Made by a program: the position numbers and the translations under genes. A stretch of 64,000 nt of DNA from Hydrogenophaga sp. (GTDB lineage: Bacteria > Pseudomonadota > Gammaproteobacteria > Burkholderiales > Burkholderiaceae_C), in contig NZ_JBFWNX010000019.1 in NCBI RefSeq assembly GCF_050250835.1, forward strand, positions 6,549-70,548, in the 5' to 3' direction. The notes under the pieces are model-generated. The model was not told the DNA's origin and did not search any database. It worked only from the letters and a program-made list of their open reading frames with translations. Below, piece by piece: positions 1 to 17,822 of this stretch; position 1 is the stretch's first letter, and the number at the start of each line of letters is the position of its first letter.

Positions 1-167
1 GCGGCAAAGCCGAGCCACGGTAGGTCACCGTGGGGCGTTGAAGGGCTGGGTGGAAATGCTGCATCGCCGCATTTTAGATGATCAACGCGGCATCAAGGAC
101 CATGCATCCAAGATGCACCAGTGGAAACGGCGAACGACCTTTGTCAATATTCGGGATCAACCACCCA

Positions 168-1139
168 TCAGGCACGCTCGGGCGCCTTCATCAGTTTCAC
201 CACCACATAGATCCCCGTCAGCATGGCCGCAAAACTGGCCAGCGCCTGCAACGACAGCGTGGGCATCAACACCAGCAACACGGTGTCGTTGCCTCCCGGC
301 ACCAGTGCGCCACCGATGCCCATGAGTCCGCCGCCCAGCATGTTGCGCCACCCGAACATGGTCTGCGCGCCGCGCCATTGAAACTGGCCGCGCTGCACCG
401 ACGAGACCACCATGCCCACGAACAGGCAGGAGACCAGCGTCAGGCGATACCATCCTGGCGGCTTCGTTCCGGATATCCAAGAAACACCCAGCTCGCGCAG
501 GTAGTTGGTGTAGGTCCAGGCGCCTTCCAGCAGGAACAGCAGGCCGCTGCAAAGACCCAGCACCATCGCGGCCATTGAAAGTCGATACCTGGGCGCCAGA
601 AGCCACTTGTCTGGGCGCTGGTGGTGGACTCTGCAGCGCCAGAGCACCACGAGCTGCCACACCGCCCACGCCAGCAGCAGCAACATCAGCGCTTTGCGAA
701 AGCCCGCGCCCACCGCACTCCACCAGAGTGCTTCCGCATGGGGCCAGGGCAGTGTGCCGACCGATTGCAGCCACGTCACCACGAGGCTGCCCAGCACAAA
801 GAACGCCAGCGTGGTGAGCAGACGGGTTTCGCCGTCCGCCAGCCGCTGCAAGGTGGACAAGGAACAGCCGCCATTCACCGCTGCCCCCATGCCGAACAGC
901 AGACCGCCGACCACGCTGAACAGCCAGCTGCTGGCCAGCACGGGGCGCCCGGCGATGGGCGCTCCCACCCAGACAAACAACCCCGTGACCAGGCTGGCCC
1001 AGAGCGAGGCGTAAAAAAAACTGACCAGCAAGCTGGCCTTGCGCTGCTCCATCCACTGCATCACCGCGCGCACCGTGCACAAGCTGGCACGGTGGGCCGC
1101 GAAGCCGATCAGAAAAACCAACACAAAACTGAGCCACAT
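168..1139 (-). CDS. YeeE/YedE-family thiosulfate/sulfur(selenium) transporter
   Basis: 323 aa, multiple TM helices, RASLCTV, GLLFGMGAAVNGGCS and GGGLMGIGGALVPGGND repeats. Confidence 0.8.
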   Translation of the reverse strand: MWLSFVLVFLIGFAAHRASLCTVRAVMQWMEQRKASLLVSFFYASLWASLVTGLFVWVGAPIAGRPVLASSWLFSVVGGLLFGMGAAVNGGCSLSTLQRLADGETRLLTTLAFFVLGSLVVTWLQSVGTLPWPHAEALWWSAVGAGFRKALMLLLLAWAVWQLVVLWRCRVHHQRPDKWLLAPRYRLSMAAMVLGLCSGLLFLLEGAWTYTNYLRELGVSWISGTKPPGWYRLTLVSCLFVGMVVSSVQRGQFQWRGAQTMFGWRNMLGGGLMGIGGALVPGGNDTVLLVLMPTLSLQALASFAAMLTGIYVVVKLMKAPERA

Positions 1140-1146
1140 GGCGCTT

Positions 1147-1174
1147 GGTCGGTGATCGCCGCATCCGGATTACA
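1147..1174 (-). promoter_or_regulatory. ECF promoter variant B (TGTAAT-N17-CGACC) for yeeE; probably leaderless transcript
   Basis: Plus strand GGTCG 1147-1151 and ATTACA 1169-1174, 17-bp spacer; the ATG starts 8 nt after CGACC. Confidence 0.75.
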
Positions 1175-1182
1175 CCGATCGC

Positions 1183-1210
1183 TGTAATGATCCGGCTCCA
1201 GGTGACGACC
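1183..1210 (+). promoter_or_regulatory. ECF promoter variant B (TGTAAT-N17-CGACC) for the Cys-rich peptide operon
   Basis: TGTAAT 1183-1188, CGACC 1206-1210, 17-bp spacer. Confidence 0.75.
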
Positions 1211-1288
1211 AAGCCCCACCAAGGACTGTTCGTGGGCATCCGGCCTCGCGCATGTCACTGGTTTCTGTCACTTCACCGGAGAACCCCC

Positions 1289-1468
1289 ATGTCATCACTT
1301 TCTTCCCGCCTGTCCCTGAGCCTGGCTGCGGCCGTTGTCACCACCGCCGCCCTGGGTGGCTGCGCCATGGCCTGCCGCGCTTGCGGCGCCAAATGCGGCA
1401 CGTCCAAGACCATGCCTAAGTGCAGCGCCTGCAAGGCCAAATGCGGCGCCTGCGCACCCAAAAAGTAA
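1289..1468 (+). CDS. 59-aa secreted Cys-rich peptide (candidate RiPP precursor or metallothionein-like)
   Basis: GGAGA SD; hydrophobic N-terminal signal-like segment; core CRACGAKCG...CSACKAKCGAC; 8 Cys in total. Confidence 0.75.
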   Translation: MSSLSSRLSLSLAAAVVTTAALGGCAMACRACGAKCGTSKTMPKCSACKAKCGACAPKK

Positions 1469-1481
1469 TCAACCCGTGCCC

Positions 1482-1517
1482 CACGTCCCCTGAACGGCAC
1501 CCCGCTCTGGGGACGTG
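1482..1517 (+). other. Intergenic stem-loop after the peptide gene
   Basis: Perfect 9-bp inverted repeat CACGTCCCC (1482-1490) / GGGGACGTG (1509-1517), no U-tract. Confidence 0.5.
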
Positions 1518-1533
1518 TCATCGACCTGCATCC

Positions 1534-2241
1534 ATGCCTGCATCCGCCCTGCTGCGCCGACACTGGCGCTCGGCCCCATTCACCGAACTGGGCGCCGCCC
1601 TGCACCACGGCCAGGCCAGCGTAGAAGCCTTCGCCACCGCCACGGAAGCAGCGGGCTCCCTGCTCCAAAGCTGGGTGCAAGGCGCCGAGGTGGTGGCGTA
1701 CGAACACTACCCGCCATCCGACGTCATTGATCTGGCCAGCGGGACCCAGTTCTACTACCACGCCCACCGCACCCACGGCGACGAACACGGGCATCTGCAC
1801 GTGTTCTGGCACGCCACCGCGTCAGGCCGCCGCAGCCGCCCCACACAAGGCCGCAAGGTCTGGAAACGCAGCGCACCGACGCACATGTTGGCCATCGCGC
1901 TCGACGCCCGTGGCTTGCCGGTCAAGCTCTTCACCACCAACCAGTGGGTCACCGAAGGCCACTGGTTCGACACTGCGCTCACCCTGGCCTGCCTCGACCG
2001 CTGCCGACCCGGCCCGGTGCCCGGCCACGAAAACGCCTGCGCCTGGCTGGGCCATTTTCTGGCGCTGTACCGCCCCCTGATCGCCGACCTGCTGCAGCGC
2101 CGGGACGCCCGCCTCGCGAAGCACGGCGCCCTGGCGGATGCATTGAGCAACCACCGCCTGGAGGTGCTCAGCCAGTCGCGCATCGACTGGGCCGCCGATC
2201 TCGATGCCCTACAAGCCGAGGCGACCCGGCGCGGGCTCTGA
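1534..2241 (+). CDS. His-motif hypothetical protein (DUF6969-like from memory; start uncertain)
   Basis: Motifs QFYYHAHR, EHGHLHVF, THMLAIALD, LFTTNQWVT. Confidence 0.6.
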   Translation: MPASALLRRHWRSAPFTELGAALHHGQASVEAFATATEAAGSLLQSWVQGAEVVAYEHYPPSDVIDLASGTQFYYHAHRTHGDEHGHLHVFWHATASGRRSRPTQGRKVWKRSAPTHMLAIALDARGLPVKLFTTNQWVTEGHWFDTALTLACLDRCRPGPVPGHENACAWLGHFLALYRPLIADLLQRRDARLAKHGALADALSNHRLEVLSQSRIDWAADLDALQAEATRRGL

Positions 2242-2263
2242 GGCTGGGCACCGCCCCGGTGAA

Positions 2264-3340
2264 TCAGCGGGCCTCGACCGTGAACTGGTGGCTGTTGCCC
2301 TTGAGTACTTCGACCGTGGGCCGGTACAGGCCCGGCAGGCTGCCCGCGCGGAACTGGATCGCGAGCAGACCCGGGTTGGGCTTGCCGCCTCCGGCCGCAG
2401 GCGGAAAGCGGTCGCTGCGCAGCACCTGCCCCGAAAGCACCGGATTGCCATCGGCACCCAGCGGGCTGGTGGCCGCCTGGCCCGTGGCGCCTTTCGGTGC
2501 CGCACCGATGATGCCGCCGACCACCGTGTCGACCGCCGGGTCCAGGCGCTTGTCGCCGTTGCTGTCCTGCACCAGCAGACCACCGGTGTAGCGCGGAAAG
2601 CGGTTGATGTCGCGCGGCGCCACGCCCACACCGTTGAGCGGTGCACCGTTGGCGCCCCAGAGCAGCAGCCCCAGGTGCATGGGGGCGACCTGCCCGGTCG
2701 CTACCGTCTGGAAGTCGGTGTTCGCGCCCGGTGGCACATGGAAATTGGTGGGCGCCAGCCGTGCCTCCAGCATTTCTTCCTGCACCCGCATGCCTCCTTG
2801 CCAGACCGCCTGCACCTGGCCCTGGGCGGACCGGCGCGTGACCGTCACCGGGTAACCGCCGGTGGCCGGGTTGGTGAAGCTGCGACCGCGCAGATGAATC
2901 ACCTTGATGCCCGGTGCGTTGCCGCCTTCTGCCGCCATGTCCTTGAGCGCGGTGACGGTGATGACGTGGTCTTTCTCGACATAGTCTATGCGGTACTGCC
3001 CGGCCAGCGGCACGGCACCCTGCGGCCAGCCCTTGGTCAGCACGAGATTGGTGTCCCGGTCGGCCACGATGGGCACCGAGGCGTTGCGCTTGAACGCCGG
3101 AGACAGCGCCAGCTGCAGCGACTCGCCCGCCTTCAGGGCCAGGCCCGGTGTGGCCGGGTTGGCGTCGGGCACCAGCACAAACACATAGTCGGTCGCTTCG
3201 CCCGCCACATGCCCGTCGTATGACACCGGAGCCGGAGCGGTGAGGAGCGCCTGCGGTTTCTGCGGTTCGACGGTGCCGCACGCGGCCAGCAGCAGCACCG
3301 AAGCGCCGATCAGCGGAAGGGTTTGGGTCATGGCATGCAT
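2264..3340 (-). CDS. Lipoprotein of unknown function
   Basis: AGGAGA SD before ATG 3340, lipobox LLAAC, DSNGDKRLD Ca-binding-like motif. Confidence 0.7.
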   Translation of the reverse strand: MHAMTQTLPLIGASVLLLAACGTVEPQKPQALLTAPAPVSYDGHVAGEATDYVFVLVPDANPATPGLALKAGESLQLALSPAFKRNASVPIVADRDTNLVLTKGWPQGAVPLAGQYRIDYVEKDHVITVTALKDMAAEGGNAPGIKVIHLRGRSFTNPATGGYPVTVTRRSAQGQVQAVWQGGMRVQEEMLEARLAPTNFHVPPGANTDFQTVATGQVAPMHLGLLLWGANGAPLNGVGVAPRDINRFPRYTGGLLVQDSNGDKRLDPAVDTVVGGIIGAAPKGATGQAATSPLGADGNPVLSGQVLRSDRFPPAAGGGKPNPGLLAIQFRAGSLPGLYRPTVEVLKGNSHQFTVEAR

Positions 3341-3396
3341 GGGAAGGTCTCCTTGAAATGAGCGGTTCACCGAAGAACCCGTGGTTGAAGAATCGG

Positions 3397-4131
3397 TCAG
3401 ATGCCCACCGTGAGGTTGACCCAGGCGTCGGGCATCCACTGCACGAACAAAGCTTCGAGCCGTTTGTCCCAGCCCATCAGGATGGCCACACCCAGCAGGC
3501 CCAGCAACACGGCAAAAGCGTGGCGCACGCGATCGATGCGCGCCATCACCCAGTCGCGCACACGGTTGAAGCCGCTGCGCGAGGCGTACGCCACGGCCAC
3601 CAGGGGAATGGCCGCCCCCAGGCCAAAAACACCCAGGATCAAGCCGCCCCGCGCCAGGCCACCCTCGCTCGCCACAAGGGTGAGCGCCGAGCCGAGCAAA
3701 GGACCTGAGCAGGGGCTCCAGACCAGGCCCAGCACACCGCCGAGCAGAAACGCACCAGTGAGCGAACCGCCCTGCAGCCCCGACGATGCGGCATGGGCCG
3801 AATTGGCCAGCGGCAACATCCAGCGCGTGAAGCGTTCGCCCAGCGCGGGCACCAGCATCACCACCGCAAAGGCGATCAACATGGCGGCACCCGCAAAGCG
3901 CACGGTGTCGCCATCCACCCCCAGCGCCGGCCCGAGGGCGCCGAGCACCACGCCGATGCCGGCGAACGAGGCAACCATGCCCAGGCCCATGGCCACCGGC
4001 CCCAGCCGGTTGCCCTGCAGCGCACCACCGACCACCAGGGGGAGCATGGGGAAAACGCAGGGTGAGAGCGTCGTCAGGCCTCCGGCGGCCAGGCTGAAAC
4101 CGAGTTGTGGCAGAGAGACCAGATCAGACAT
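3397..4131 (-). CDS. ccdA: CcdA/DsbD-type transmembrane electron transporter
   Basis: LSPCVFPMLP and WSPCSGPLL Cys motifs, about 6 TM helices. Confidence 0.85.
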   Translation of the reverse strand: MSDLVSLPQLGFSLAAGGLTTLSPCVFPMLPLVVGGALQGNRLGPVAMGLGMVASFAGIGVVLGALGPALGVDGDTVRFAGAAMLIAFAVVMLVPALGERFTRWMLPLANSAHAASSGLQGGSLTGAFLLGGVLGLVWSPCSGPLLGSALTLVASEGGLARGGLILGVFGLGAAIPLVAVAYASRSGFNRVRDWVMARIDRVRHAFAVLLGLLGVAILMGWDKRLEALFVQWMPDAWVNLTVGI

Positions 4132-4144
4132 GCGTGTGTTGCGC

Positions 4145-4525
4145 TCAGAGCGCGGACTTGAATGCGGTGCGAATGGCGGCTGGGTCGGTGTCACCCACCA
4201 GGCGCGCCCACTCCTGTTGCCCGCGCAGCACCACGAAGGTGGACTGGGCGCGCACGTTGAACCGCTTCTTGATGTCCTTCTCGGTGTCGTAGTTGACGAC
4301 CATCACCGTCAGGTCCAGACCCGACTCGCTCTTGAGGGACTGCAAGACCTTGTCCTGCGCGCGGCAGGTCGGGCACCAGTCGGCATGGAAGTGCAGCGCC
4401 ACCGGCTGGTTGCTGGCCTGGGCCTGCGCCAGCAGCGCGGCAGAAAAGGGTTTGATCTCCAGCGCGTGCGAGGCAGCACTGGCGAGCAACAGAACAGAGG
4501 CAAAAAAGACGCGGCGAAGAACCAT
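4145..4525 (-). CDS. Periplasmic thioredoxin-family protein
   Basis: Signal peptide, FHADWCPTC, AQST cis-Pro loop equivalent. Confidence 0.85.
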   Translation of the reverse strand: MVLRRVFFASVLLLASAASHALEIKPFSAALLAQAQASNQPVALHFHADWCPTCRAQDKVLQSLKSESGLDLTVMVVNYDTEKDIKKRFNVRAQSTFVVLRGQQEWARLVGDTDPAAIRTAFKSAL

Positions 4526-4560
4526 GTTGACTCCTTGAATGGGACCTGGGTGATGAGTTC

Positions 4561-4588
4561 AGTCGCCCCCACGCGTGCATTCCTTACA
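4561..4588 (-). promoter_or_regulatory. ECF promoter variant A (TGTAAG-N17-CGACT) for trx-ccdA-lipoprotein
   Basis: Plus strand AGTCG 4561-4565, CTTACA 4583-4588, 17-bp spacer. Confidence 0.8.
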
Positions 4589-4603
4589 GGCGTCAATGAA
4601 CAA

Positions 4604-5827
4604 TCAGGCCAGGTCGGCCGGCGCCGCAACCGCTGCGTCCAGGTGAAGCCTGTGCAGACACACCCCTTCGAGCGGATCGTGTGGCGCTTCCCAAGGCTTT
4701 TCCGCCAGCGCCTGGCGCCCCAGCTTCAGCCCGGCGTCCGAACGCATGCCCACTCCGCGGGGCGTGAAGTCAATGTCCTTGCTCTGGTCCGCACCCGGCA
4801 GGTGCGGCGCCATCAGGCTGACGACGTGCATCACCGTGTTGCAACCCCAGGCGCCCAGCTCGCGCGCGTGGGCGCTGTCGGGCACTTGCCGGGCCAGGTC
4901 GCGGATGATGTGGCGCAGCCGGTGCAACTGGCGCTGGCGCTCGATGTGCGATTCGGCCCGGCTGGCGAACTGGATGTCTTTCAAACGGCCCTGCACGTCC
5001 CAGAGGCTTTGCGGTTCATCCCCGTGCGGCTCCCACAGGCGGCAGGCAAAGATCAGCGAGTCGCAGCGCGGCTTGTCGTCCAGCACGACCTCGATCGGCG
5101 TGTTCGAGTACAGCCCGCCGTCCCAGTACGGGTCGCCGTCGATGCGCACGGCACCGAAAGCCGGCGCCAGCGCCCCTGAGGCCATGATGTGGTCGACGCC
5201 GAGGCGTTCGTGCCGACTGTCGAAATACCGCATCTGCCCGGTGCGCGCGTTGACCGCGCCCACCGTGATGCGCATGGGCGAGCGCGCGAGGTATTCAAAA
5301 TCCACCAGCTCACCGAGTGTGTCGCGCAGCGGCTGCGTGTCGTAGTACGCCGCCTGTTCGATGCCGAGCGCCTGGCGCGGGTTGAACCAGGCGGGCAGGT
5401 TGGGCTTGAAGAAATCGGGAATGCCCTGCCCCACCACACCCAGGTTGTGCTGCCACTGCGCCAACCCGGCCAGCGAGGGCCACAGTGCAAAGACGCCTTG
5501 CCCCGCCTGCCGCGACTGCATGCGCGCCCAGAACTCACGCAAGCGCGCCAGCCGGTGCTGGGGATGGTTGCCAGCGATCAATGCGGCGTTGATCGCACCG
5601 ATGGAGGTGCCGATGACCCAGTCCGGCTCCTTGCCGCCTTCGTGCAGGGCCTGGTAGACACCGAGGTGAAACGCCCCTACCGCGCCACCGCCCTGCATGA
5701 CCATCACGGTCTGCTGGGGCGGGCAGTTCGTGTTCGGCATTTCCATCCTGGTACGCGCCACCTTCGCGGCCACCGTTTGGGCGGAATCGCGGGGTTGGCG
5801 GGATGGGGTTTTTGCGCGTGTGGCCAT
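4604..5827 (-). CDS. Patatin-like phospholipase/esterase with DUF3734-like C-terminus (start uncertain)
   Basis: QGGGAVG, GTSIG nucleophile elbow, WDGG. Confidence 0.85.
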   Translation of the reverse strand: MATRAKTPSRQPRDSAQTVAAKVARTRMEMPNTNCPPQQTVMVMQGGGAVGAFHLGVYQALHEGGKEPDWVIGTSIGAINAALIAGNHPQHRLARLREFWARMQSRQAGQGVFALWPSLAGLAQWQHNLGVVGQGIPDFFKPNLPAWFNPRQALGIEQAAYYDTQPLRDTLGELVDFEYLARSPMRITVGAVNARTGQMRYFDSRHERLGVDHIMASGALAPAFGAVRIDGDPYWDGGLYSNTPIEVVLDDKPRCDSLIFACRLWEPHGDEPQSLWDVQGRLKDIQFASRAESHIERQRQLHRLRHIIRDLARQVPDSAHARELGAWGCNTVMHVVSLMAPHLPGADQSKDIDFTPRGVGMRSDAGLKLGRQALAEKPWEAPHDPLEGVCLHRLHLDAAVAAPADLA

Positions 5828-5843
5828 ATCGATCCGCCTTTCG

Positions 5844-6644
5844 TTATTGCGCCGTCCAGCCGCCGTCGATGGGCATCACCGCGCCGGTGATGCTGGCGCC
5901 GGCGTCGGAACACAGGAAAGCCGCGTAGGCCGCCACCTGCTCGATGGTGACGAAGCGCTTGGTGGGCTGTGCGTGCAGCAGCACATCGTCGATCACCTGC
6001 TGTTCGGTCAGGCCGCGCGCCCTGGCCGTGTCGGGGATCTGCTTTTCCACCAGCGGTGTCCACACATAGCCCGGGCACAGCGCGTTGGCGGTGATGCCCT
6101 GGGTGGCCACTTCCAGCGCCACCGTTTTGGTGAACCCGGCGATGCCGTGTTTGGCCGCCACGTAGGCGGACTTGAACGGCGATGCCACCAGCGCGTGCGC
6201 AGAGGCCACGTTGATCACCCGGCCCCACCCCTTCGTCTTCATGCCGGGCAAGGCCAGCCGCGTGGTGTGGAACGCGGCCGACAGGTTGATCGCGATGATC
6301 GCGTTCCACTTGTCCACCGGAAACTCGTCCACCGGCGCCACGTATTGAATGCCCGCGTTGTTCACCAGGATGTCGATAGCGCCGCGGGTGCCGATGGCTT
6401 CTTCCATCATGGCCTGCGTGGCCGCCGGATCGGACAGGTCGGCGCCGCTGTGGTGCACGTTCACCCCGTGCAGCTGCGACAGCTCGCTGCGCAGTTGTTC
6501 GATGGCTTCGATTTCGCCGAAACCGTTGAGCACGATGTCGCACCCCGCCGCGGCCAGCGCCGTCGCGATACCGAGACCGATACCGCTGGTGGACCCTGTG
6601 ACGAGGGCGGTTTTTCTCTTGGCGCGGGTGGTCGGGTGGGACAT
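5844..6644 (-). CDS. bdhA: 3-hydroxybutyrate dehydrogenase (SDR)
   Basis: TGSTSGIG, NNAGIQ, YVAAKHG, CPGYVWTPLV. Confidence 0.9.
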   Translation of the reverse strand: MSHPTTRAKRKTALVTGSTSGIGLGIATALAAAGCDIVLNGFGEIEAIEQLRSELSQLHGVNVHHSGADLSDPAATQAMMEEAIGTRGAIDILVNNAGIQYVAPVDEFPVDKWNAIIAINLSAAFHTTRLALPGMKTKGWGRVINVASAHALVASPFKSAYVAAKHGIAGFTKTVALEVATQGITANALCPGYVWTPLVEKQIPDTARARGLTEQQVIDDVLLHAQPTKRFVTIEQVAAYAAFLCSDAGASITGAVMPIDGGWTAQ

Positions 6645-10536: not shown

Positions 10537-11358
10537 TCAGACTGGCTGCGCCGTCCACGCACCCGGCGCCATGCCGATCTTGCGCACGAAGGCGCGAGAG
10601 AGTGCGCTGGCACTGCCGTACCCCACTTCCAACGCCACCTGCTTGATGGCCACCCCGCGCGCCAAAAGCCGCTGCGCCGTCAGCACACGCCAGGAGGCCA
10701 GGTAGTCGGCCGGGGTCTGCCCCGTCACTTCGCGAAAGCGCTCGGCAAACCGGGCGCGCGACATGCCAGCGCGGTGCGCCATGCCGGGCAGATCCCACTG
10801 CAGTTGCGGCGATTCGTGCAGGGCCGCGAGCACCGGACCGATCCGTGCGTCCGCCAGCCCCGCCAGCGTGCCGCCCTGCGTCAGACCCTGGGCCATGCAG
10901 TGGCGCAGCAGACGGACCATCAGCACCTCGCACAGTCGGTCCAGCACCCCTTGGCGACCGGGGTGTTCGTGGAACGCCTCGTCGAACATCAGGTCCAGCA
11001 AAGCGTCCACCCCGGGCAACTGGCTCAGAGACACCATGACCAGATCCGGCAAGGAGGCGGTGATCGGGTTGATGCCAGAGCCACCGAACTGCACCGTGGC
11101 ACACACCACGTCCGCTCCGGCCCCGTCGTCGGCCACCAGGCGGTGCTGGTCGGGTCGCGGCAGGAACATCAGCGTGGGCTCGGTCACCGCAAACCGACGT
11201 CGTGTCACGCCCCGCACCTGCACGTCGCCGCTGCGGATCAGGTGCAGGTGCCCGCGCTGGGTGTCGCGCTCGAAATCGTGAATGCCACAGATGTTGCCGG
11301 TGTAGAAAACACCCGCGTGCAGGGAAAAGCTTTGGAGCAGGCTGGCCAGAGGATCCAT
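10537..11358 (-). CDS. AraC-family regulator with N-terminal cupin
   Basis: MDPLASLL, GHLHLI cupin, C-terminal double HTH GMSRARFA...VGYGSASALSRAF. Confidence 0.9.
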   Translation of the reverse strand: MDPLASLLQSFSLHAGVFYTGNICGIHDFERDTQRGHLHLIRSGDVQVRGVTRRRFAVTEPTLMFLPRPDQHRLVADDGAGADVVCATVQFGGSGINPITASLPDLVMVSLSQLPGVDALLDLMFDEAFHEHPGRQGVLDRLCEVLMVRLLRHCMAQGLTQGGTLAGLADARIGPVLAALHESPQLQWDLPGMAHRAGMSRARFAERFREVTGQTPADYLASWRVLTAQRLLARGVAIKQVALEVGYGSASALSRAFVRKIGMAPGAWTAQPV

Positions 11359-11426
11359 GTTCAGATGGTACGTCCGGTCAATCAACCATCAACATCAGGC
11401 ACCATTCGTATCCATTGCGGGTCAAG

Positions 11427-11996
11427 TCAAGTGCCATCTGGCGCCTGGGATGCTGCATCCAGGAAGGCCAACAAGGGCGCATAGCCCGTGTCCTTGAGGC
11501 CCTGCCCGCGGGCGACAAACACCTCGGGCGAACCCTTCACCCCATGCCCTTCCAGCAGCCGGTTCATGAAGTTGAACAGGCACACTGTGAGCACGGCATC
11601 GTGCAGGGCGGCTTCGCTCCAACCGGCGGCAAACACTGCCTGCGCATCGGCTTCGGTCATGCGCGAGGGCTCCAGCGTGAGCTTGCGCGCGTAGCGCAGC
11701 AGCGGCTTGAGCCGCTCGTCCACGTCGGCGCTGTCAATGTCGGTCAGCAGACGCTCCAGCACCCCGGCTTCCAGCCCGAACGCCCTGGCCGTCTCGGCGT
11801 GCACGCCAAAACAGTACTGGCAGGCATTGAGTCCGGAGACGTAAGCGGCGATCAGTTCTTTGTGGCGCGGCTCCAGCAGCCCCTCGTTGCGCAACGCGGC
11901 GGTGTGGAACTCGACCAGGGCCCGGCCCGCTCTCGGATTGAGCGTCAGGATGTGGCGAACGCCCGCGTCCTCGGGCAGTGATTTGAAGAAGCTCAT
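11427..11996 (-). CDS. Second CMD/AhpD-like peroxidase-related protein
   Basis: ELIAAYVSGLNACQYCFGVH, FNFMNRL. Confidence 0.85.
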   Translation of the reverse strand: MSFFKSLPEDAGVRHILTLNPRAGRALVEFHTAALRNEGLLEPRHKELIAAYVSGLNACQYCFGVHAETARAFGLEAGVLERLLTDIDSADVDERLKPLLRYARKLTLEPSRMTEADAQAVFAAGWSEAALHDAVLTVCLFNFMNRLLEGHGVKGSPEVFVARGQGLKDTGYAPLLAFLDAASQAPDGT

Positions 11997-12229
11997 GGGT
12001 GCTTGCTTTCGTGGTTCTGGGTGTTTGCGGTGCCAGGTTCTTCGATCACCTCGTCCAGGCGCTCTGAATAGGCCTTCATGGCCTTGCGTAGAAAAGGCAC
12101 CTGCAAGCTGAAGTTCTTGCAGCCGTCGCACATCATCAGGTGCAGGTTGAGCGACATCTTCTCGACAACCGAGAGCTTGCGCTCCTGGGATTCGGACACC
12201 AGGCGGGTCACTTCGCGGCAATTCAGCAT
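11993..12229 (-). CDS. zf-HC2 anti-sigma factor 2
   Basis: MLNCREVT...HLMMCDGC. Confidence 0.85.
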   Translation of the reverse strand: MLNCREVTRLVSESQERKLSVVEKMSLNLHLMMCDGCKNFSLQVPFLRKAMKAYSERLDEVIEEPGTANTQNHESKHP

Positions 12230-12861
12230 GTTGCACCTCCCCGGGCAAACCAGCGGTCTTCCAGACACTCCCGCAGACGCAGGCGCGCACGGTGCAGCAT
12301 CACATTGAGGTTGGTCGGGGTGATGCCCACCTCGCTGCAGATCTCGCGCGACTCCAGGCCCACGTATTCACGCATCATGAACACCTTGGCTTGTTGGCCT
12401 GGCAGCCCCTCCAGGCACAGCTCGAACACCTTCCAGAACTGCTTGTCGTGCAGGGTTTCGGTCGGATTGCCCCAGGTCGCGGGGCGCTCGTCTGCCTCCC
12501 ACATGCCCCGGCCATTGAACAGCTCGGAGAGGTCGGCCTCTTCGTCGGCATCGCCCACCGGCTGGTGGATCGAAACCTCGCGCTGCCGCTGGCGCAGCCG
12601 CAGGATGTCGGTGATCTTGTTCTTCAGGATAGCGAAAACCCAGGTCTTGAGACTGGCCTTGCCAGCGTAGGCCGCGGTGTTCCTGAAAGCACCCATCAGG
12701 GCCTCCTGCACCGCGTCTTCGGCCAGTTGCGGGTCCCCCAGCTGAAGAGAAGCGAACTTGACCATCTTGCCCCGCAGCGCGCTCAGCTCGGCCGGATCAA
12801 TCTCCTGAGCCTGAGACGCGCCGTCCTGCACATCGGCTGCCTTTGTCTTGCTGGCGCTCAT
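12223..12861 (-). CDS. ECF sigma factor 2 (TIGR02943-like)
   Basis: AEDAVQEAL, TWVFAILKNKITD, VFMMREYVGLESREIC, LHRARLRLRECL. Confidence 0.9.
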   Translation of the reverse strand: MSASKTKAADVQDGASQAQEIDPAELSALRGKMVKFASLQLGDPQLAEDAVQEALMGAFRNTAAYAGKASLKTWVFAILKNKITDILRLRQRQREVSIHQPVGDADEEADLSELFNGRGMWEADERPATWGNPTETLHDKQFWKVFELCLEGLPGQQAKVFMMREYVGLESREICSEVGITPTNLNVMLHRARLRLRECLEDRWFARGGATC

Positions 12862-13094
12862 GGTGCAGCCTTGTTCGACAGTTGATTGCGCGCTGCGCTG
12901 TAACTGGACACCGCGTAGGGCACCAGGAAATTCAGTAACACGTGTCCCCAGGCGATGGGTCCGCCCGAGAAAAACGCCTCGCCCTGGTTGATCAGGTTGA
13001 GCACACAGCCCACGACCAGCGAAACACGCAGCGCGCCCACCACGATGGGCCGTGAAAACACCGTGCCTAAAAACCTTTGCATCAACGGCTCCAT
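12858..13094 (-). CDS. NrtS-like small membrane protein (start 13094 or 13082)
   Basis: ALRVSLVVGCVLNLINQG and NFLVPYAVSSY motifs; stop overlaps the sigma 2 start. Confidence 0.7.
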   Translation of the reverse strand: MEPLMQRFLGTVFSRPIVVGALRVSLVVGCVLNLINQGEAFFSGGPIAWGHVLLNFLVPYAVSSYSAARNQLSNKAAP

Positions 13095-13244
13095 ATGTAG
13101 GGTGGTGTCTGACGCCCTGTACAGGCGCGCAGACGCTGGCCGCGATTCTCGTACAGAACGCCCGGCGTCCGGGCGCAGCGCACAGCGGCGTCCACCGAAA
13201 TAGCTTGCAACCCATACCCGAACTCCATGTGTGTTGACAGACTT

Positions 13245-13272
13245 GGTCGCCGAGCGCGCGTTATTCATTACA
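13245..13272 (-). promoter_or_regulatory. ECF promoter variant B (TGTAAT-N17-CGACC) for nrtS-sigma2-antisigma2-CMD
   Basis: Plus strand GGTCG 13245-13249, ATTACA 13267-13272. Confidence 0.75.
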
Positions 13273-13341
13273 CGGTTCAGCCGTCTCCCATCACCAAGTC
13301 TCATCACCCGTGTGCGCTGAAAGAAAACTTCGGCGACTCGG

Positions 13342-13369
13342 TGTAAGGATCGCCCAAACGGAGGCGACT
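13342..13369 (+). promoter_or_regulatory. ECF promoter variant A (TGTAAG-N17-CGACT) for bufABCD
   Basis: TGTAAG 13342-13347, CGACT 13365-13369. Confidence 0.8.
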
Positions 13370-13434
13370 ACATCCCTGCAAGCTCATCTTGTGGGCGAGC
13401 ACCTTCCAACCTCAATCCCTTTCAGGAGAACACC

Positions 13435-13755
13435 ATGAGCTACAGCATCACCCGCCGCAACGCCGCCCAGATCGCCTCGGGCGCAGCCCTTGCCCTCGCC
13501 ATGGGCGCCGCCCTCACGCTGGCCGCCAGCCCGGCCGTCGCCCAGAGCGCCGACAAGGAGAAGTGCTTCGGCGTCGCCCTCAAAGGCAAGAACGACTGCG
13601 CTGCCGGCCCCGGCACCACCTGCGCCGGAACATCCAAGGTGGACTACCAGGGCAACGCCTGGTCGCTGGTGCCCAAGGGCAGCTGCGAGAAGACCGCATC
13701 GCCCAAGTCGCCCACCGGGTTCGGCCAGCTCAAGGAATTCAAAGAGAAGGCCTGA
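13435..13755 (+). CDS. bufA: Bufferin precursor (DUF2282/BufA1)
   Basis: Sec signal; [19 protein letters not shown]...W...GSC four-Cys pattern. Confidence 0.9.
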
Positions 13756-13799
13756 TCGCTTCGCGTGAACGACGGACACCAGAACCAGGAGCCGACGCC

Positions 13800-14774
13800 A
13801 TGAGCCACCGCGCTGCCTCGACCACCGCCTGCGTTCCGCCGATCACGCTGACGGACCACAGCCCACCCGATCGCTGGCCCCTGCCGCATCGGGCGGGGCT
13901 GGGCCTCAAGCCCGAACATTTCACGCACATTCACGAGCACCAGCCCGATGTCGGCTTCTTCGAGGTGCATGCGGAAAACTACCTCGTGGCCGGTGGCCCG
14001 CTGCTGCAACACCTCACCCGCATTCGTGAAAGCTATCCACTGAGCATCCACGGCGTGGGCCTGTCCATCGGCGGCGAAGACCCGCTCGATACCACCCACC
14101 TGGACGCCGTGGCCTGCCTGCTGGAGCGCTTCCAGCCCGCCGTTTTCTCCGAACACCTTGCTTGGTCCAGCCACGGCGGCGTGTTCTTCAACGACCTGCT
14201 GCCCCTGCCCTACAACCTGCCCACGCTGCAACGCGTGTGCGAACACATCGACCAGGTGCAAAGCCGCCTCGGGCGCGCCCTGCTGCTGGAGAACCCGTCC
14301 ACCTACGTCGAGTTCATCAGCTCGACCTGGAGCGAAGGCGACTTCCTGCGCGAAGTGATCCACCGCACCGGCTGCGGCCTGCTGCTCGATGTCAACAACG
14401 TGTATGTCTCCAGCGTCAACCACGGGCGCGACCCCCGACGCAGCCTGTGCGAACTGCCCTGCCATGCCGCGGGCGAAATCCACCTCGCGGGGTTTGCCGA
14501 AGACCTCGACGCCGCCGGCGACCGCCTGCTGATTGACACCCACGGCACGCCGGTGGCCGAGGCGGTCTGGGCCCTGTACGACGCCGCGCTGGCGATCACT
14601 GGACCGTTGCCGACATTGATCGAGCGAGACAACGATCTCCCTTCCTTCGAGGTGCTGCGTCAGGAGGCTCGCTTGGCCGACATGCACTTGTCGGCCATCG
14701 CCCCCGCCACCGGCCGCGCCAAACCTTGCCCCCGGACCAAAACCCGCTACGCGGCGGCACAGGAGGTTGCATGA
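13800..14774 (+). CDS. bufB: DUF692 multinuclear non-heme iron oxidase (MNIO)
   Basis: [60 protein letters not shown]. Confidence 0.92.
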
Positions 14775-15541
14775 GCGTGCAACACACCTGGGCGCAGTCC
14801 CTGCTGGATCCCTCGCAATCACCACCCGCAGGCCTCACCACCTGGAACCACAGCGATCCCTCCAAGCGCTTGGCGGTGTACCGCAACAACGTGCTGGTCT
14901 CGCTGGTGGACGCGCTGGCCCACACCTTCCCGGTGACGCAAGAACTGGTGGGAGAAGACTTCTTCCGCGCCATGGCCCAGGTCTTTGTGCGCGCCCACCC
15001 GCCCCGCACCCGCGTGCTCGCGCACTACGGCCAGGCGCTGCCGGGGTTCATCGCCCAGTTTCCGCCCGCCACCGGTCTGCCCTACCTGGCCGATGTGGCA
15101 CAACTCGAATGGCAACGCCTGCAGGCCCTGCATGCGGCCGACGCCAGCGCCATGGAGCCCGCCGCCATCGCCATGCTGCTGGGTGACGCCGCGAGCTTGC
15201 CTCAGGTGCATTGGCAACCGCATCCGAGCCTGCACCTGCTGCGCTCGCCTCATGCGGCCGTCTCGCTCTGGGCTGCCCACCAGGCCGACAGCGGCCTGGC
15301 GCTGGAACACATTGACACCACACGGGCCGAATCGGCCCTGGTGTTTCGCAGCGTGCTGAACGTGATGGTGCTGCAGGCCGATGCCGGCTTGGCCGCCCTG
15401 ACAGCCGGCCTGCTTGACAACGCCCCCTTCGGCGCAGCCATCGCCCAGGCCTTGAGCGCCGACCCCGCTTTCGACCCCGCGCAGGCCATGGCCGTGCTGA
15501 TCCGCCACGGGTTGCTGGTCGGCGCCCGGCACCCGCACTGA
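14771..15541 (+). CDS. bufC: DUF2063 (HvfC/BufC) MNIO partner protein
   Basis: [11 protein letters not shown]...[15 protein letters not shown]. Confidence 0.88.
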
Positions 15542-15607
15542 ACACCGGCACAGACCCCGTTTCGCCACTCACAACCTCTTTCAGCCACAACAACCCAGGA
15601 GACCGCC

Positions 15608-16138
15608 ATGAACACCCTCACCACTTCCCAAGGTACCGACACCAACGGCCTGATGTCGCGCCTGAGCGCGCTGCTGCGCACCGTGCACGGCATGATGGGC
15701 CACCTGCCCAACACGCTGCTGGCCTTCATCGCCCGCTTCTCCATCGCCGCCGTGTTCTGGAAATCGGGCCAGACCAAGATCGAAGGCCTGGCCATCGACA
15801 TCGTCAGCGGCGAGTTCACGCTGGGCATGCCCCGACTGTCCGACAACGCCGTGTTCCTGTTCAAGGAAGAATACAAATTGCCCATCCTGTCGCCAGAACT
15901 GGGCGCGACGATGGCCGCGCTGGGCGAACACATCCTGCCCATCTTCATCCTGCTCGGCCTGGCCACCCGCCTGTCGGCGCTGGGCCTGCTGGGCATGACG
16001 ATGGTGATCCAGCTCTTCGTCTACCCCGACGCCTACGCCACCCACGGCACCTGGGCCGCCGTGTTGCTCTACCTCATGGTCCACGGCCCGGGCAAGCTGT
16101 CGATCGACGCCTGGATTGCCAAGCGCTGCGCCGGCTGA
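15608..16138 (+). CDS. bufD: DoxX-family membrane protein
   Basis: FWKSGQTK, LFKEEY, GLATRLSAL, HGPGKLSID. Confidence 0.88.
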   Translation: MNTLTTSQGTDTNGLMSRLSALLRTVHGMMGHLPNTLLAFIARFSIAAVFWKSGQTKIEGLAIDIVSGEFTLGMPRLSDNAVFLFKEEYKLPILSPELGATMAALGEHILPIFILLGLATRLSALGLLGMTMVIQLFVYPDAYATHGTWAAVLLYLMVHGPGKLSIDAWIAKRCAG

Positions 16139-16994: not shown

Positions 16995-17408
16995 TCAGGC
17001 CTGCCCGTCCCGGATCGATGCGATCAACGGGCAACGCACACGCCCACGCGTCGATCCGCAGCGCGCCACCAGATCGGCCAGCACCTGCTCGATGCGCTGC
17101 AGGTCTGCGAGACGGGCGCGCACATCGGCCAGCTTGCGCTCGCCCTGTTCGCGTGCCTCGCCACAATGCGATCCATCTTCCAGCTTGAGCAGTTCCGCCA
17201 CCTCGTCCAGGCTGAAACCCAGGCGTTGCGCGGATTTGATGAAGCGCACCCGCGCCAGATCAGCATCGCCGTAGCGCCGAACTCCACCCTGAGGCCGCGC
17301 AGGTTCGGGCATCAGACCTTTGCGTTGGTAGAAGCGGATGGTCTCCAGGTTGACCCCGGCCGCCTCCGCCAGGACGCCGATGGTGAAGACCGGGGAAACA
17401 GCTCGCAT
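16995..17408 (-). CDS. merR: Hg(II)-responsive regulator MerR
   Basis: [23 protein letters not shown]; three Hg-binding Cys (SHC, ARC, RCP). Confidence 0.9.
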
Positions 17409-17413
17409 GGCAC

Positions 17414-17444
17414 TTGACTCCGTACTTGAGTACAGCCTTAAGCT
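17414..17444 (+). promoter_or_regulatory. mer operator/promoter
   Basis: TTGACT (17414-19), 19-bp spacer with CCGTAC-TTGA-GTAC dyad, TAAGCT (17439-44). Confidence 0.9.
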
Positions 17445-17450
17445 TACGCC

Positions 17451-17822
17451 ATGAATACCGATCACCCCAGCACATCACAAGAAAAGTCCGGCCTGTGGGC
17501 TCTGCTGACCGGAGGCCTCGCGGCCTTGTTCGCATCGGCCTGCTGTCTCGGCCCCTTGGTGCTGATCACCCTCGGCGTCTCCGGTGCCTGGATCAGCCGG
17601 TTGAGCCAGCTCGGGCCGATGCAGCCGGTGTTTCTGGCCGCCGCAGTGGTGGCGCTCGTGCTCGCATGGCGTCGCATCTGGCGCCCTGCCGCGGTTTGCT
17701 TGCCAGGCCAGGTGTGTGCCCGTCCAGCCGTCAAGCGCGTTTACAGGCTGTTGTTTGCCGCGGTGGTCGCCCTGCTCACCATCGCGTTGGTATTCCCGTT
17801 CATCGCCCACTGGTTTTACTGA
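17451..17822 (+). CDS. merT: Mercuric transport protein MerT
   Basis: SACCLGPL, second Cys pair C....VC, 3 TM helices. Confidence 0.88.

Follow-up and report, generated by a model that had tools for sequence, protein, structure and literature searches.

A conserved gene pair for a cysteine-repeat peptide and a DUF6969 protein shares a promoter motif with a bufferin cluster in Hydrogenophaga sp.

Results

The peptide gene and its operon

The locus described here lies in a 64,000-nucleotide stretch of the Hydrogenophaga sp. genome (contig NZ_JBFWNX010000019.1, positions 6,549 to 70,548 of the forward strand; hereafter the window). It is a two-gene operon at positions 1183-2241 of the window, in which a gene for a short, cysteine-rich and putatively exported peptide is followed on the same strand by a gene for a protein of the DUF6969 family (Table 1). 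The original prediction, made from the sequence alone, had placed here an extracytoplasmic function (ECF) promoter, a 59-residue open reading frame (ORF) with a Shine-Dalgarno (SD) sequence, eight cysteines in two CxACxAKCG units and a final AC, a DNA repeat, a 9-bp stem-loop and a co-oriented partner with YYHAH and EHGHLH clusters, and all of these are present. The ORF encodes MSSLSSRLSLSLAAAVVTTAALGGCAMACRACGAKCGTSKTMPKCSACKAKCGACAPKK, with its ATG at 1289 and its stop codon at 1466-1468 on the + strand, and its cysteines are residues 25, 29, 32, 36, 45, 48, 52 and 55. The two units read CRACGAKCG and CSACKAKCG and are followed by a terminal GAC, and the 12-nt sequence GCCAAATGCGGC occurs twice, at 1388-1399 and 1436-1447.

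Bacterial lipoproteins, the substrates of signal peptidase (SPase) II, carry [LVI][ASTVIG][GAS]-C after an n- and h-type signal region. The peptide has an Arg-containing n-region, an A/V/T-rich h-region and, closing the signal region, the lipobox A-L-G-G-C (residues 21-25), so that the LGGC which had been proposed as a possible lipobox is found at residues 22-25. A protein search gave 37 homologue clusters, all of which have a comparable signal region and KCGAC-type repeats in variable number, and A-L-(G/S)-G-C is kept in 36 of them; SPase I sites (AFA/A, MAA/T) replace the lipobox in some relatives. From this pattern the peptide is predicted to be lipidated at Cys25. Scans of the peptide against Pfam and NCBIfam gave no match at E<=0.1.

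Spurious ORFs are common in high-GC DNA, and dozens are listed in this region, which favours a chance open frame with meaningless Cys repeats. The window was aligned with four congeneric loci, in which the partner protein is about 90% identical; promoter, SD and start codon are conserved among them. Codon differences in the peptide ORF are 17 synonymous and 2 non-synonymous between the window and L005, and 24 and 0 between L003 and L005, and the single 3-nt indel is in frame. Given the mostly synonymous differences, the in-frame indel and the 37 homologue clusters, the ORF is on comparative grounds a real gene under purifying selection. Together with the conserved SD and promoter and a synteny with DUF6969 that is kept across classes, these data refute a chance frame, whose probability we regard as practically nil.

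The two genes are separated by the stem-loop. At the same position the four congeners have a 10-bp stem of other sequence, CCCGGAGCAG/CTGCTCCGGG. As no T-run follows the stem-loop on its 3' side, it probably acts as an mRNA stabiliser or as a leaky or partial terminator that sets the peptide-to-partner ratio.

The DUF6969 partner protein

The partner, which had been called DUF6969-like, does belong to PF22308, with 187.9 bits against a gathering score of 27 over model positions 4-201 of 201, and all 16 aligned relatives match this family too. No signal peptide was found in it. The family is large, with 1,129 clusters at 50% identity (E<=1e-3), and the name DUF6969 was not found in a literature search. 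Over 143 representatives (median identity to the window protein, 29%), at least 90% conservation was found for H58, P60, D63, D66, H76, H78, E84, G86, H87, H89, F91, H117, N136, W138, V139, T140, W171, R190 and D191, with no conserved Cys. Because of the six near-invariant His and the carboxylates, DUF6969 is predicted to be a metalloprotein, whose metal centre would be built from these His and from Asp/Glu and is possibly binuclear.

The AlphaFold2 (AF2) model is of good quality (predicted local distance difference test score, pLDDT, 86; predicted template modelling score 0.87) and shows N-terminal helices, a long-hairpin sheet that bears the His residues, and C-terminal helices. A Foldseek search of the PDB with this model found no relative (best E 0.99, template modelling score below 0.2), sequence and profile searches of the PDB gave nothing below E 0.7, and Pfam searches with 16 members revealed no second family at E<=10. 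The string G71-TQFYY-H76-A-H78...E84 resembles cupin motif 1, defined as G-x5-H-x-H-x(3-6)-E on a double-stranded beta-helix barrel. It is no evidence for a cupin, since model and profile find no PDB relative, and this identity was dropped in view of the missing PDB fold match and of the absence of a cupin Pfam match at E<=10.

Domain fusions among 150 representatives are limited to two proteins. In P0162, a protein of 497 aa, DUF6969 is duplicated in tandem; P0288, as read from its sequence, has an N-terminal DUF6969 domain, a long coiled coil, a hydrophobic (transmembrane) stretch and an SH3-like tail. The remaining long matches appear to be gene-calling artefacts that take in an upstream frame.

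Conservation of the pair

An exported Cys-repeat protein stands beside DUF6969 in about 41 of 44 assessable loci across Pseudomonadota and on its strand. When genome contigs were searched with the DUF6969 protein, 14 of 18 loci had a co-oriented KCG-repeat ORF just upstream; the remaining four are L015-L017, with an NPCxP-repeat peptide, and one fragment. Within the GTDB family of the source, DUF6969 was found in 15 of 151 genera, and a signal-bearing Cys-repeat ORF lies upstream of it in all 15 loci. It ends tens of nucleotides before the DUF6969 start in 14 of these and about 250 nt before it in L022, where the partner is a 246-aa protein. A phylum-wide sample (DUF6969 in 12 of 401 genomes) added acidic lipoproteins with AAEGCC or ACEGACC repeats (L043, L044) and NPCGP peptides (L046, L047) as neighbours. 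In other classes, too, such an ORF accompanies DUF6969 at most loci. Larger secreted proteins also occur beside DUF6969, with NPCAAK repeats flanking a CxxCH cytochrome c domain (L022, L038, L040), and the cytochrome-associated DUF6969 gene of L048 follows a gene matching Pfam SoxA-TsdA_cyt-c. Among loci read with longer flanks, L052 has an NPCAA-repeat ORF 1.2 kb from DUF6969, and one further locus sits at a contig edge. Conversely, both peptide homologues examined in a reverse look-up adjoin DUF6969.

The repeats thus come in several flavours, namely KCGAC, NPCAP, acidic EGCC, and NPCAAK flanking cytochrome c. On a maximum-likelihood tree of 41 DUF6969 proteins each flavour falls in one clade: the label changes 6 times (minimum 5) against a mean of 21.2 after shuffling, and none of 200 shuffles was as low. 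Moreover, where a genome has two DUF6969 paralogues, each has its own Cys-repeat partner (L022 and L026 in G063; L048). This matching of clade and flavour fits direct cooperation between peptide and DUF6969.

Across loci the constant unit is the pair alone, with YeeE, thioredoxin/DsbD, cytochrome c and MNIO genes varying around it. By these comparisons the pair is a genuine and widespread conserved module. The original prediction had proposed a neighbourhood analysis and had named partner homologues rarely lying beside such peptides as the unfavourable outcome; the analysis gave the opposite. The pairing has the adjacency generally expected of a peptide that is ribosomally made and modified after translation (RiPP) and its enzyme, and it bears on adjacency, not on enzyme function.

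Conservation of the signal region

Between genera, residues 1-24 of the KCG peptide are 57-71% identical, and the DUF6969 proteins of the same genera only 45-61%. As a control we took the signal peptide of the co-located 358-aa lipoprotein (Table 1), which is barely alignable, whereas the mature part of that protein is 65-70% identical. Such unusual conservation relative to the control suggests that the signal region of the peptide may be read by something besides Sec and Lsp.

A promoter motif shared within the window

The motif TGTAA-N17-CGAC occurs at 9 sites in the window (1148-36128), against 0.23 expected, and none of 100 shuffles reached nine. Besides the sites before the peptide operon, yeeE and the thioredoxin operon (Table 1), it precedes an SDR-patatin pair (6723, -), two ECF sigma genes (9607, +; 13272, -), the bufferin cluster (13342, +) and two further operons (27384, +; 36128, -). 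Together the nine sites define a predicted ECF regulon. The DUF692 (MNIO) gene that had been noted some 12 kb from the pair is that of the bufferin cluster, and both MNIOs of the source genome have a DUF2282 precursor of their own. Right after this cluster (16995-17822), ORF translations point to a MerR-like gene (-) and a MerT-like gene (+).

The lipoprotein that closes the thioredoxin operon always follows trx-dsbD and is 65-92% identical across genera. It has no Cys or His cluster and no match among Pfam, NCBIfam or PDB profiles, and its AF2 model is unusable (pLDDT 40).

Table 1. Coordinates of the features discussed. Positions refer to the window unless another locus is named.
Feature	Position	Strand	Basis or remark
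YeeE/YedE-family (Sulf_transp) membrane protein	168-1139	-	PF04143, E 3e-27; divergent from peptide promoter
Divergent copy of promoter motif, facing yeeE	1148-1174	-	Motif search
ECF-type promoter TGTAAT-N17-CGAC of peptide-DUF6969 operon	1183-1209	+	Motif count; conserved in L002-L005
Shine-Dalgarno GGAG	1278-1281	+	7 nt 5' of ATG; conserved in 5-sequence alignment
Predicted signal peptide, residues 1-24, lipobox L-G-G-C at end	1289-1360	+	Homologue comparison
Core peptide CAMACRACGAKCGTSKTMPKCSACKAKCGACAPKK and stop codon	1361-1468	+	35 residues; 8 Cys, 6 Lys, 1 Arg
Stem-loop, 9-bp stem 1482-1490/1509-1517	1482-1517	+	dG -25.7 kcal/mol, z -3.4 vs shuffles
DUF6969 protein, 235 aa, cytoplasmic	1534-2241	+	PF22308, E 2.1e-55; His cluster H58, H76, H78, E84, H87, H89, H117
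Conserved lipoprotein, ~358 aa, last gene of trx-dsbD operon	2264-3340	-	No family match
CcdA/DsbD-type transmembrane thiol reductant conduit	3397-4194	-	PF02683, E 8.5e-20
Exported thioredoxin, first gene of trx-dsbD-lipoprotein operon	4145-4525	-	Family match
Promoter motif before trx-dsbD-lipoprotein operon	4562-4588	-	Motif search
ECF sigma gene divergent from bufferin cluster	12226-12801	-	Own motif copy 13246-13272
Bufferin (Buf1) cluster	13342-16138	+	Promoter 13342-13368, then bufA1, MNIO, DUF2063, DoxX
bufA1, DUF2282 precursor	13435-13755	+	PF10048, E 1.3e-24
MNIO (DUF692)	~13893-14681	+	12.4 kb from peptide-DUF6969 pair
DUF2063 of bufferin cluster	to 15541	+	
DoxX of bufferin cluster	15608-16138	+	
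Twin peptide genes	L057 4718-5192; L010 and L011 ~3590-3990		
NPCAAK/NPCAP repeats flanking CxxCH cytochrome c domain	L022 1932-2669; L040 500-1360; L038 2249-3394; L048 904-1365		Beside separate DUF6969 clade

Association with bufferin clusters in other genomes

In sister genera, one or more KCG peptide genes and DUF6969 lie directly downstream of bufA1-MNIO-HvfC_N-DoxX (bufABCD) on the same strand, in at least eight distinct loci (L007, L009, L010/L014, L011, L018, L026, L057/L058 and L059). In L007, L010/L014 and L057, DUF6969 is followed by a convergent pair of nrsF and ECF sigma genes; nrsF alone was detected there in L011. The trx-dsbD-lipoprotein genes stand downstream of DUF6969 on the same strand in L007, L010/L014, L011, L018 and L057, and trx-dsbD is linked to at least eight KCG loci. 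The exact promoter motif was found before trx in L010, L014 and L018; neither an exact nor a relaxed search found it before the peptide in other genera, and the one bufABCD-to-peptide spacer that was read (L057) has no separate copy. In these genera the pair may be co-transcribed with bufABCD. The module behaves like an add-on to bufferin clusters and to the sigma regulon to which they belong.

Sister genera often have twin peptide genes before DUF6969, one with an SPase I-type site (..GGNAFAG/TC..) and the other with a lipobox (..ALGGC..), which suggests that soluble and tethered forms of one peptide may be made.

This synteny has to be weighed as support for another explanation, namely that the bufferin MNIO and DUF2063 proteins (BufB/BufC) take the KCG peptide as a further substrate, modifying it in cis in the sister genera and in trans in the window, with DUF6969 as an accessory that has another task. 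The product would then carry Cu(I) sites of the oxazolin kind, thiooxazole or oxazolone-thioamide. The contiguity with bufABCD, the spacer of L057 and the promoter motif common to both operons of the window all speak for it, and K-C-G is part of the EGKCG motif of the MNIO-modified oxazolins (PMC12452194). However, the MNIOs of the source genome already have their own precursors, and MNIO (PF05114) is absent from 10 of 24 DUF6969 genomes, seven of the ten being at least 99% complete; many genomes of the NPC-peptide clade are without it. MNIO as a general requirement was rejected because of these genomes. The peptide also has neither the E-G of EGKCG nor the 17-residue repeat and fits no NCBIfam or Pfam model, which weakens the explanation further. 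The explanation also leaves the universal pairing with DUF6969 unaccounted for, and we hold it to be improbable. The original prediction had listed the peptide as a trans substrate of the DUF692 protein among its alternatives: the synteny in sister genera favours that idea, and the dedicated precursors and the genomes without MNIO speak against it.

The oxazolin-type (HvfA) precursor to which the peptide had been likened is a different matter. Oxazolins (Buf_EGKCG) have EGKCG motifs in 17-residue repeats, with a predicted beta-helix, and are always encoded with MNIO and DUF2063 (PMC12452194). In the peptide AKCG occurs twice, neither copy is preceded by EG and a 17-residue period is absent, and it matched no NCBIfam or Pfam family; as to gene order, the nearest MNIO is not adjacent in the window, and it is in sister genera that the pair directly follows bufABCD. 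The proposed link is not borne out.

Thiol and sulfur genes around the pair

Other neighbours point elsewhere. In the clade with small NPC peptides, each of the 13 loci has a YeeE-like gene of some 200 codons placed directly upstream in the same orientation; in the window yeeE is divergently co-promoted with the peptide. SoxA/TsdA-type cytochrome c and rhodanese genes occur as neighbours in other DUF6969 clades. In L048, from a Burkholderiales metagenome-assembled genome, YHS, PagL, DUF302 and a second Sulf_transp gene lie downstream of trx-dsbD-lipoprotein (11042-13892), and PagL recurs in L059, beside a second DUF6969.

These genes, with the linked trx-dsbD, agree with an explanation in which the peptide stays unmodified. 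In the periplasm, or tethered to the outer membrane, it would either buffer thiols, like a metallothionein or sacrificially, or carry sulfane sulfur or a soft metal on a swinging arm as SoxY does. The thioredoxin/CcdA pair would reduce it, and DUF6969 would process in the cytoplasm what YeeE imports from the peptide and leave the peptide itself untouched, in a relay comparable to MerP-MerT-MerA or SoxY-SoxS-SoxT. A published model has SoxY-bound sulfur passed to the YeeE-like SoxT with the help of the thioredoxin SoxS (PMC11582611), and the wide repeat diversity (KCGAC, NPCAP, EGCC) would fit a function that needs just exposed thiols. Nevertheless, DUF6969 has no conserved Cys, unlike sulfur-relay acceptors (TusA/YeeD, rhodanese), and YeeE is absent from most KCG-clade loci outside the source genus, where the peptide is never absent, so that the pair and not YeeE is the constant element. 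The leader-like conservation of the signal region is also left unexplained, and we consider an unmodified thiol relay rather unlikely. An unmodified periplasmic metallothionein, which the original prediction had listed as an alternative, is nonetheless a serious competitor.

Discussion

The reading that we put forward, tentatively and as a possibility short of an even chance, is that DUF6969 modifies the cysteines of the precursor before Sec export, in the manner of a RiPP enzyme, and that the lipid-anchored, ECF-induced product serves as an envelope buffer for soft metals. Metal or thiol stress at the envelope would make the sigma factor turn on the operon, with the intergenic hairpin holding the peptide mRNA above that of the partner. 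DUF6969, with a metal centre of six His and Asp/Glu, would bind the conserved signal or leader region of the precursor and act on its Cys in the cytoplasm, in parallel to the action of MNIO/BufC (BufB/BufC) on BufA1. After Sec export the product would receive a lipid at Cys25 and stay anchored in the envelope, where its (modified) Cys sites could buffer soft metals such as Cu(I). Any thiols left over would be held in reduced form by the exported thioredoxin/CcdA pair.

Several lines of evidence support this reading: the peptide gene is real, it is paired with DUF6969 and matches it clade by clade, the pair is the constant unit, and DUF6969 has its invariant His cluster. The leader-like signal region adds to these, as do the shared regulon and the synteny with bufABCD, a proven system for Sec-exported RiPP metallophores. 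Of the earlier idea that the partner is a metal-dependent peptide-modifying enzyme, the conserved module and the metalloprotein-like His cluster have been upheld; the modification itself stays hypothetical, and the searches found no solved or annotated relative of the partner.

Other points weigh against it. DUF6969 is only a putative enzyme, for which no PDB relative, by sequence or fold, and no second Pfam family was found. The match between clade and flavour is also expected if the operon is simply inherited as a unit, and L051 and L054 have no Cys-repeat ORF within about 7 kb of DUF6969. Large multi-domain partners, with cytochrome c flanked by NPCAAK repeats, would be unusual RiPP substrates. 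A dedicated periplasmic trx/ccdA pair suggests that some Cys stay free thiols, and in other clades the many neighbouring genes for YeeE, rhodanese and SoxA-type cytochromes speak for sulfur rather than metal chemistry.

Modification of bufferins takes place in the cytoplasm and precedes their export by Sec; in Caulobacter, SigF/NrsF control the buf operons, and copper-stressed cells grow better with bufferins (PMC11626156). The peptide-DUF6969 module shares with them a small Cys-containing precursor that has a Sec signal in place of the classical leader, an adjacent cytoplasmic (putative) metalloprotein and ECF control (PMC11626156), and genuine bufABCD genes belong to its regulon in the window and adjoin the pair in sister genera. 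It differs in that the partner is DUF6969 and not MNIO/DUF2063, without a TIM-barrel tri-iron signature or a PDB relative, and in that the peptide is of low complexity and bears a lipobox, without the fold or motif of DUF2282; any modification here is inferred. The peptide is no Buf1 (DUF2282) member, as it has no PF10048 match; members have a small folded domain with four Cys. Like the oxazolins/HvfA of Haemophilus and others (PMC12452194), it is exported, has repeated short K-C-G Cys motifs and may have a copper-related role. It departs from them in its AKCGAC or CxACxAKCG motif, in matching no NCBIfam model and in the DUF6969 genomes that have no MNIO.

The resemblance to SoxYZ-SoxS/SoxV-SoxT (PMC11582611) lies in periplasmic exposed Cys on a flexible arm of small residues, a thioredoxin with a CcdA-type conduit, and a YeeE channel. 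Unlike the Sox proteins, the peptide has neither a SoxY/SoxZ fold nor a C-terminal GGCGG and has many Cys instead of one; DUF6969 has no Sox counterpart, and the regulon of the window has ties to metal stress, with bufferin, mer and cus genes close by. It is no SoxY carrier by family either, being a 35-residue low-complexity peptide with no SoxY match in Pfam or NCBIfam, and no soxZ-like gene was seen in 1-6000. Lipobox-bearing RiPP precursors are reported for the ChrH-type MNIO subfamily (PMC13056109); if the peptide is modified, it would likewise be a ribosomal peptide that is both modified and processed as a lipoprotein, with another enzyme family and another peptide class. The module thus works most like the bufferin and oxazolin systems without being a member of them, since the partner and peptide families differ, and possibly the chemistry too.

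A bolder form of the modification hypothesis, which we regard as doubtful, is that DUF6969 founds a new class of metal-dependent cytoplasmic enzymes modifying peptide Cys, with a new fold and unrelated to MNIO, radical SAM and YcaO. It is likewise unlikely, if conceivable, that, together with its partners, it marks out RiPP metallophores or thiol cofactors that use the Sec or lipoprotein route of export and form a large family, of about 1,100 clusters at 50% identity. Such precursors would have escaped notice for their low complexity and because most go unannotated.

If DUF6969 does modify peptides, it would be a new enzyme family, with new chemistry, for Sec-exported ribosomal metallophores, a group now made up of bufferins and oxazolins, and this would explain a family of about 1,100 clusters that is not named in the literature searched. 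Even if the peptide is unmodified, the Cys-repeat peptide, the His-cluster protein, YeeE and thioredoxin/CcdA would make up an undescribed envelope thiol system that bacteria use alongside bufferins when metals are stressful. Gene callers routinely overlook precursors this short and of such low complexity, which makes the system invisible in standard annotation. It may be relevant to copper, mercury and cadmium tolerance in Burkholderiales of groundwater and wastewater.

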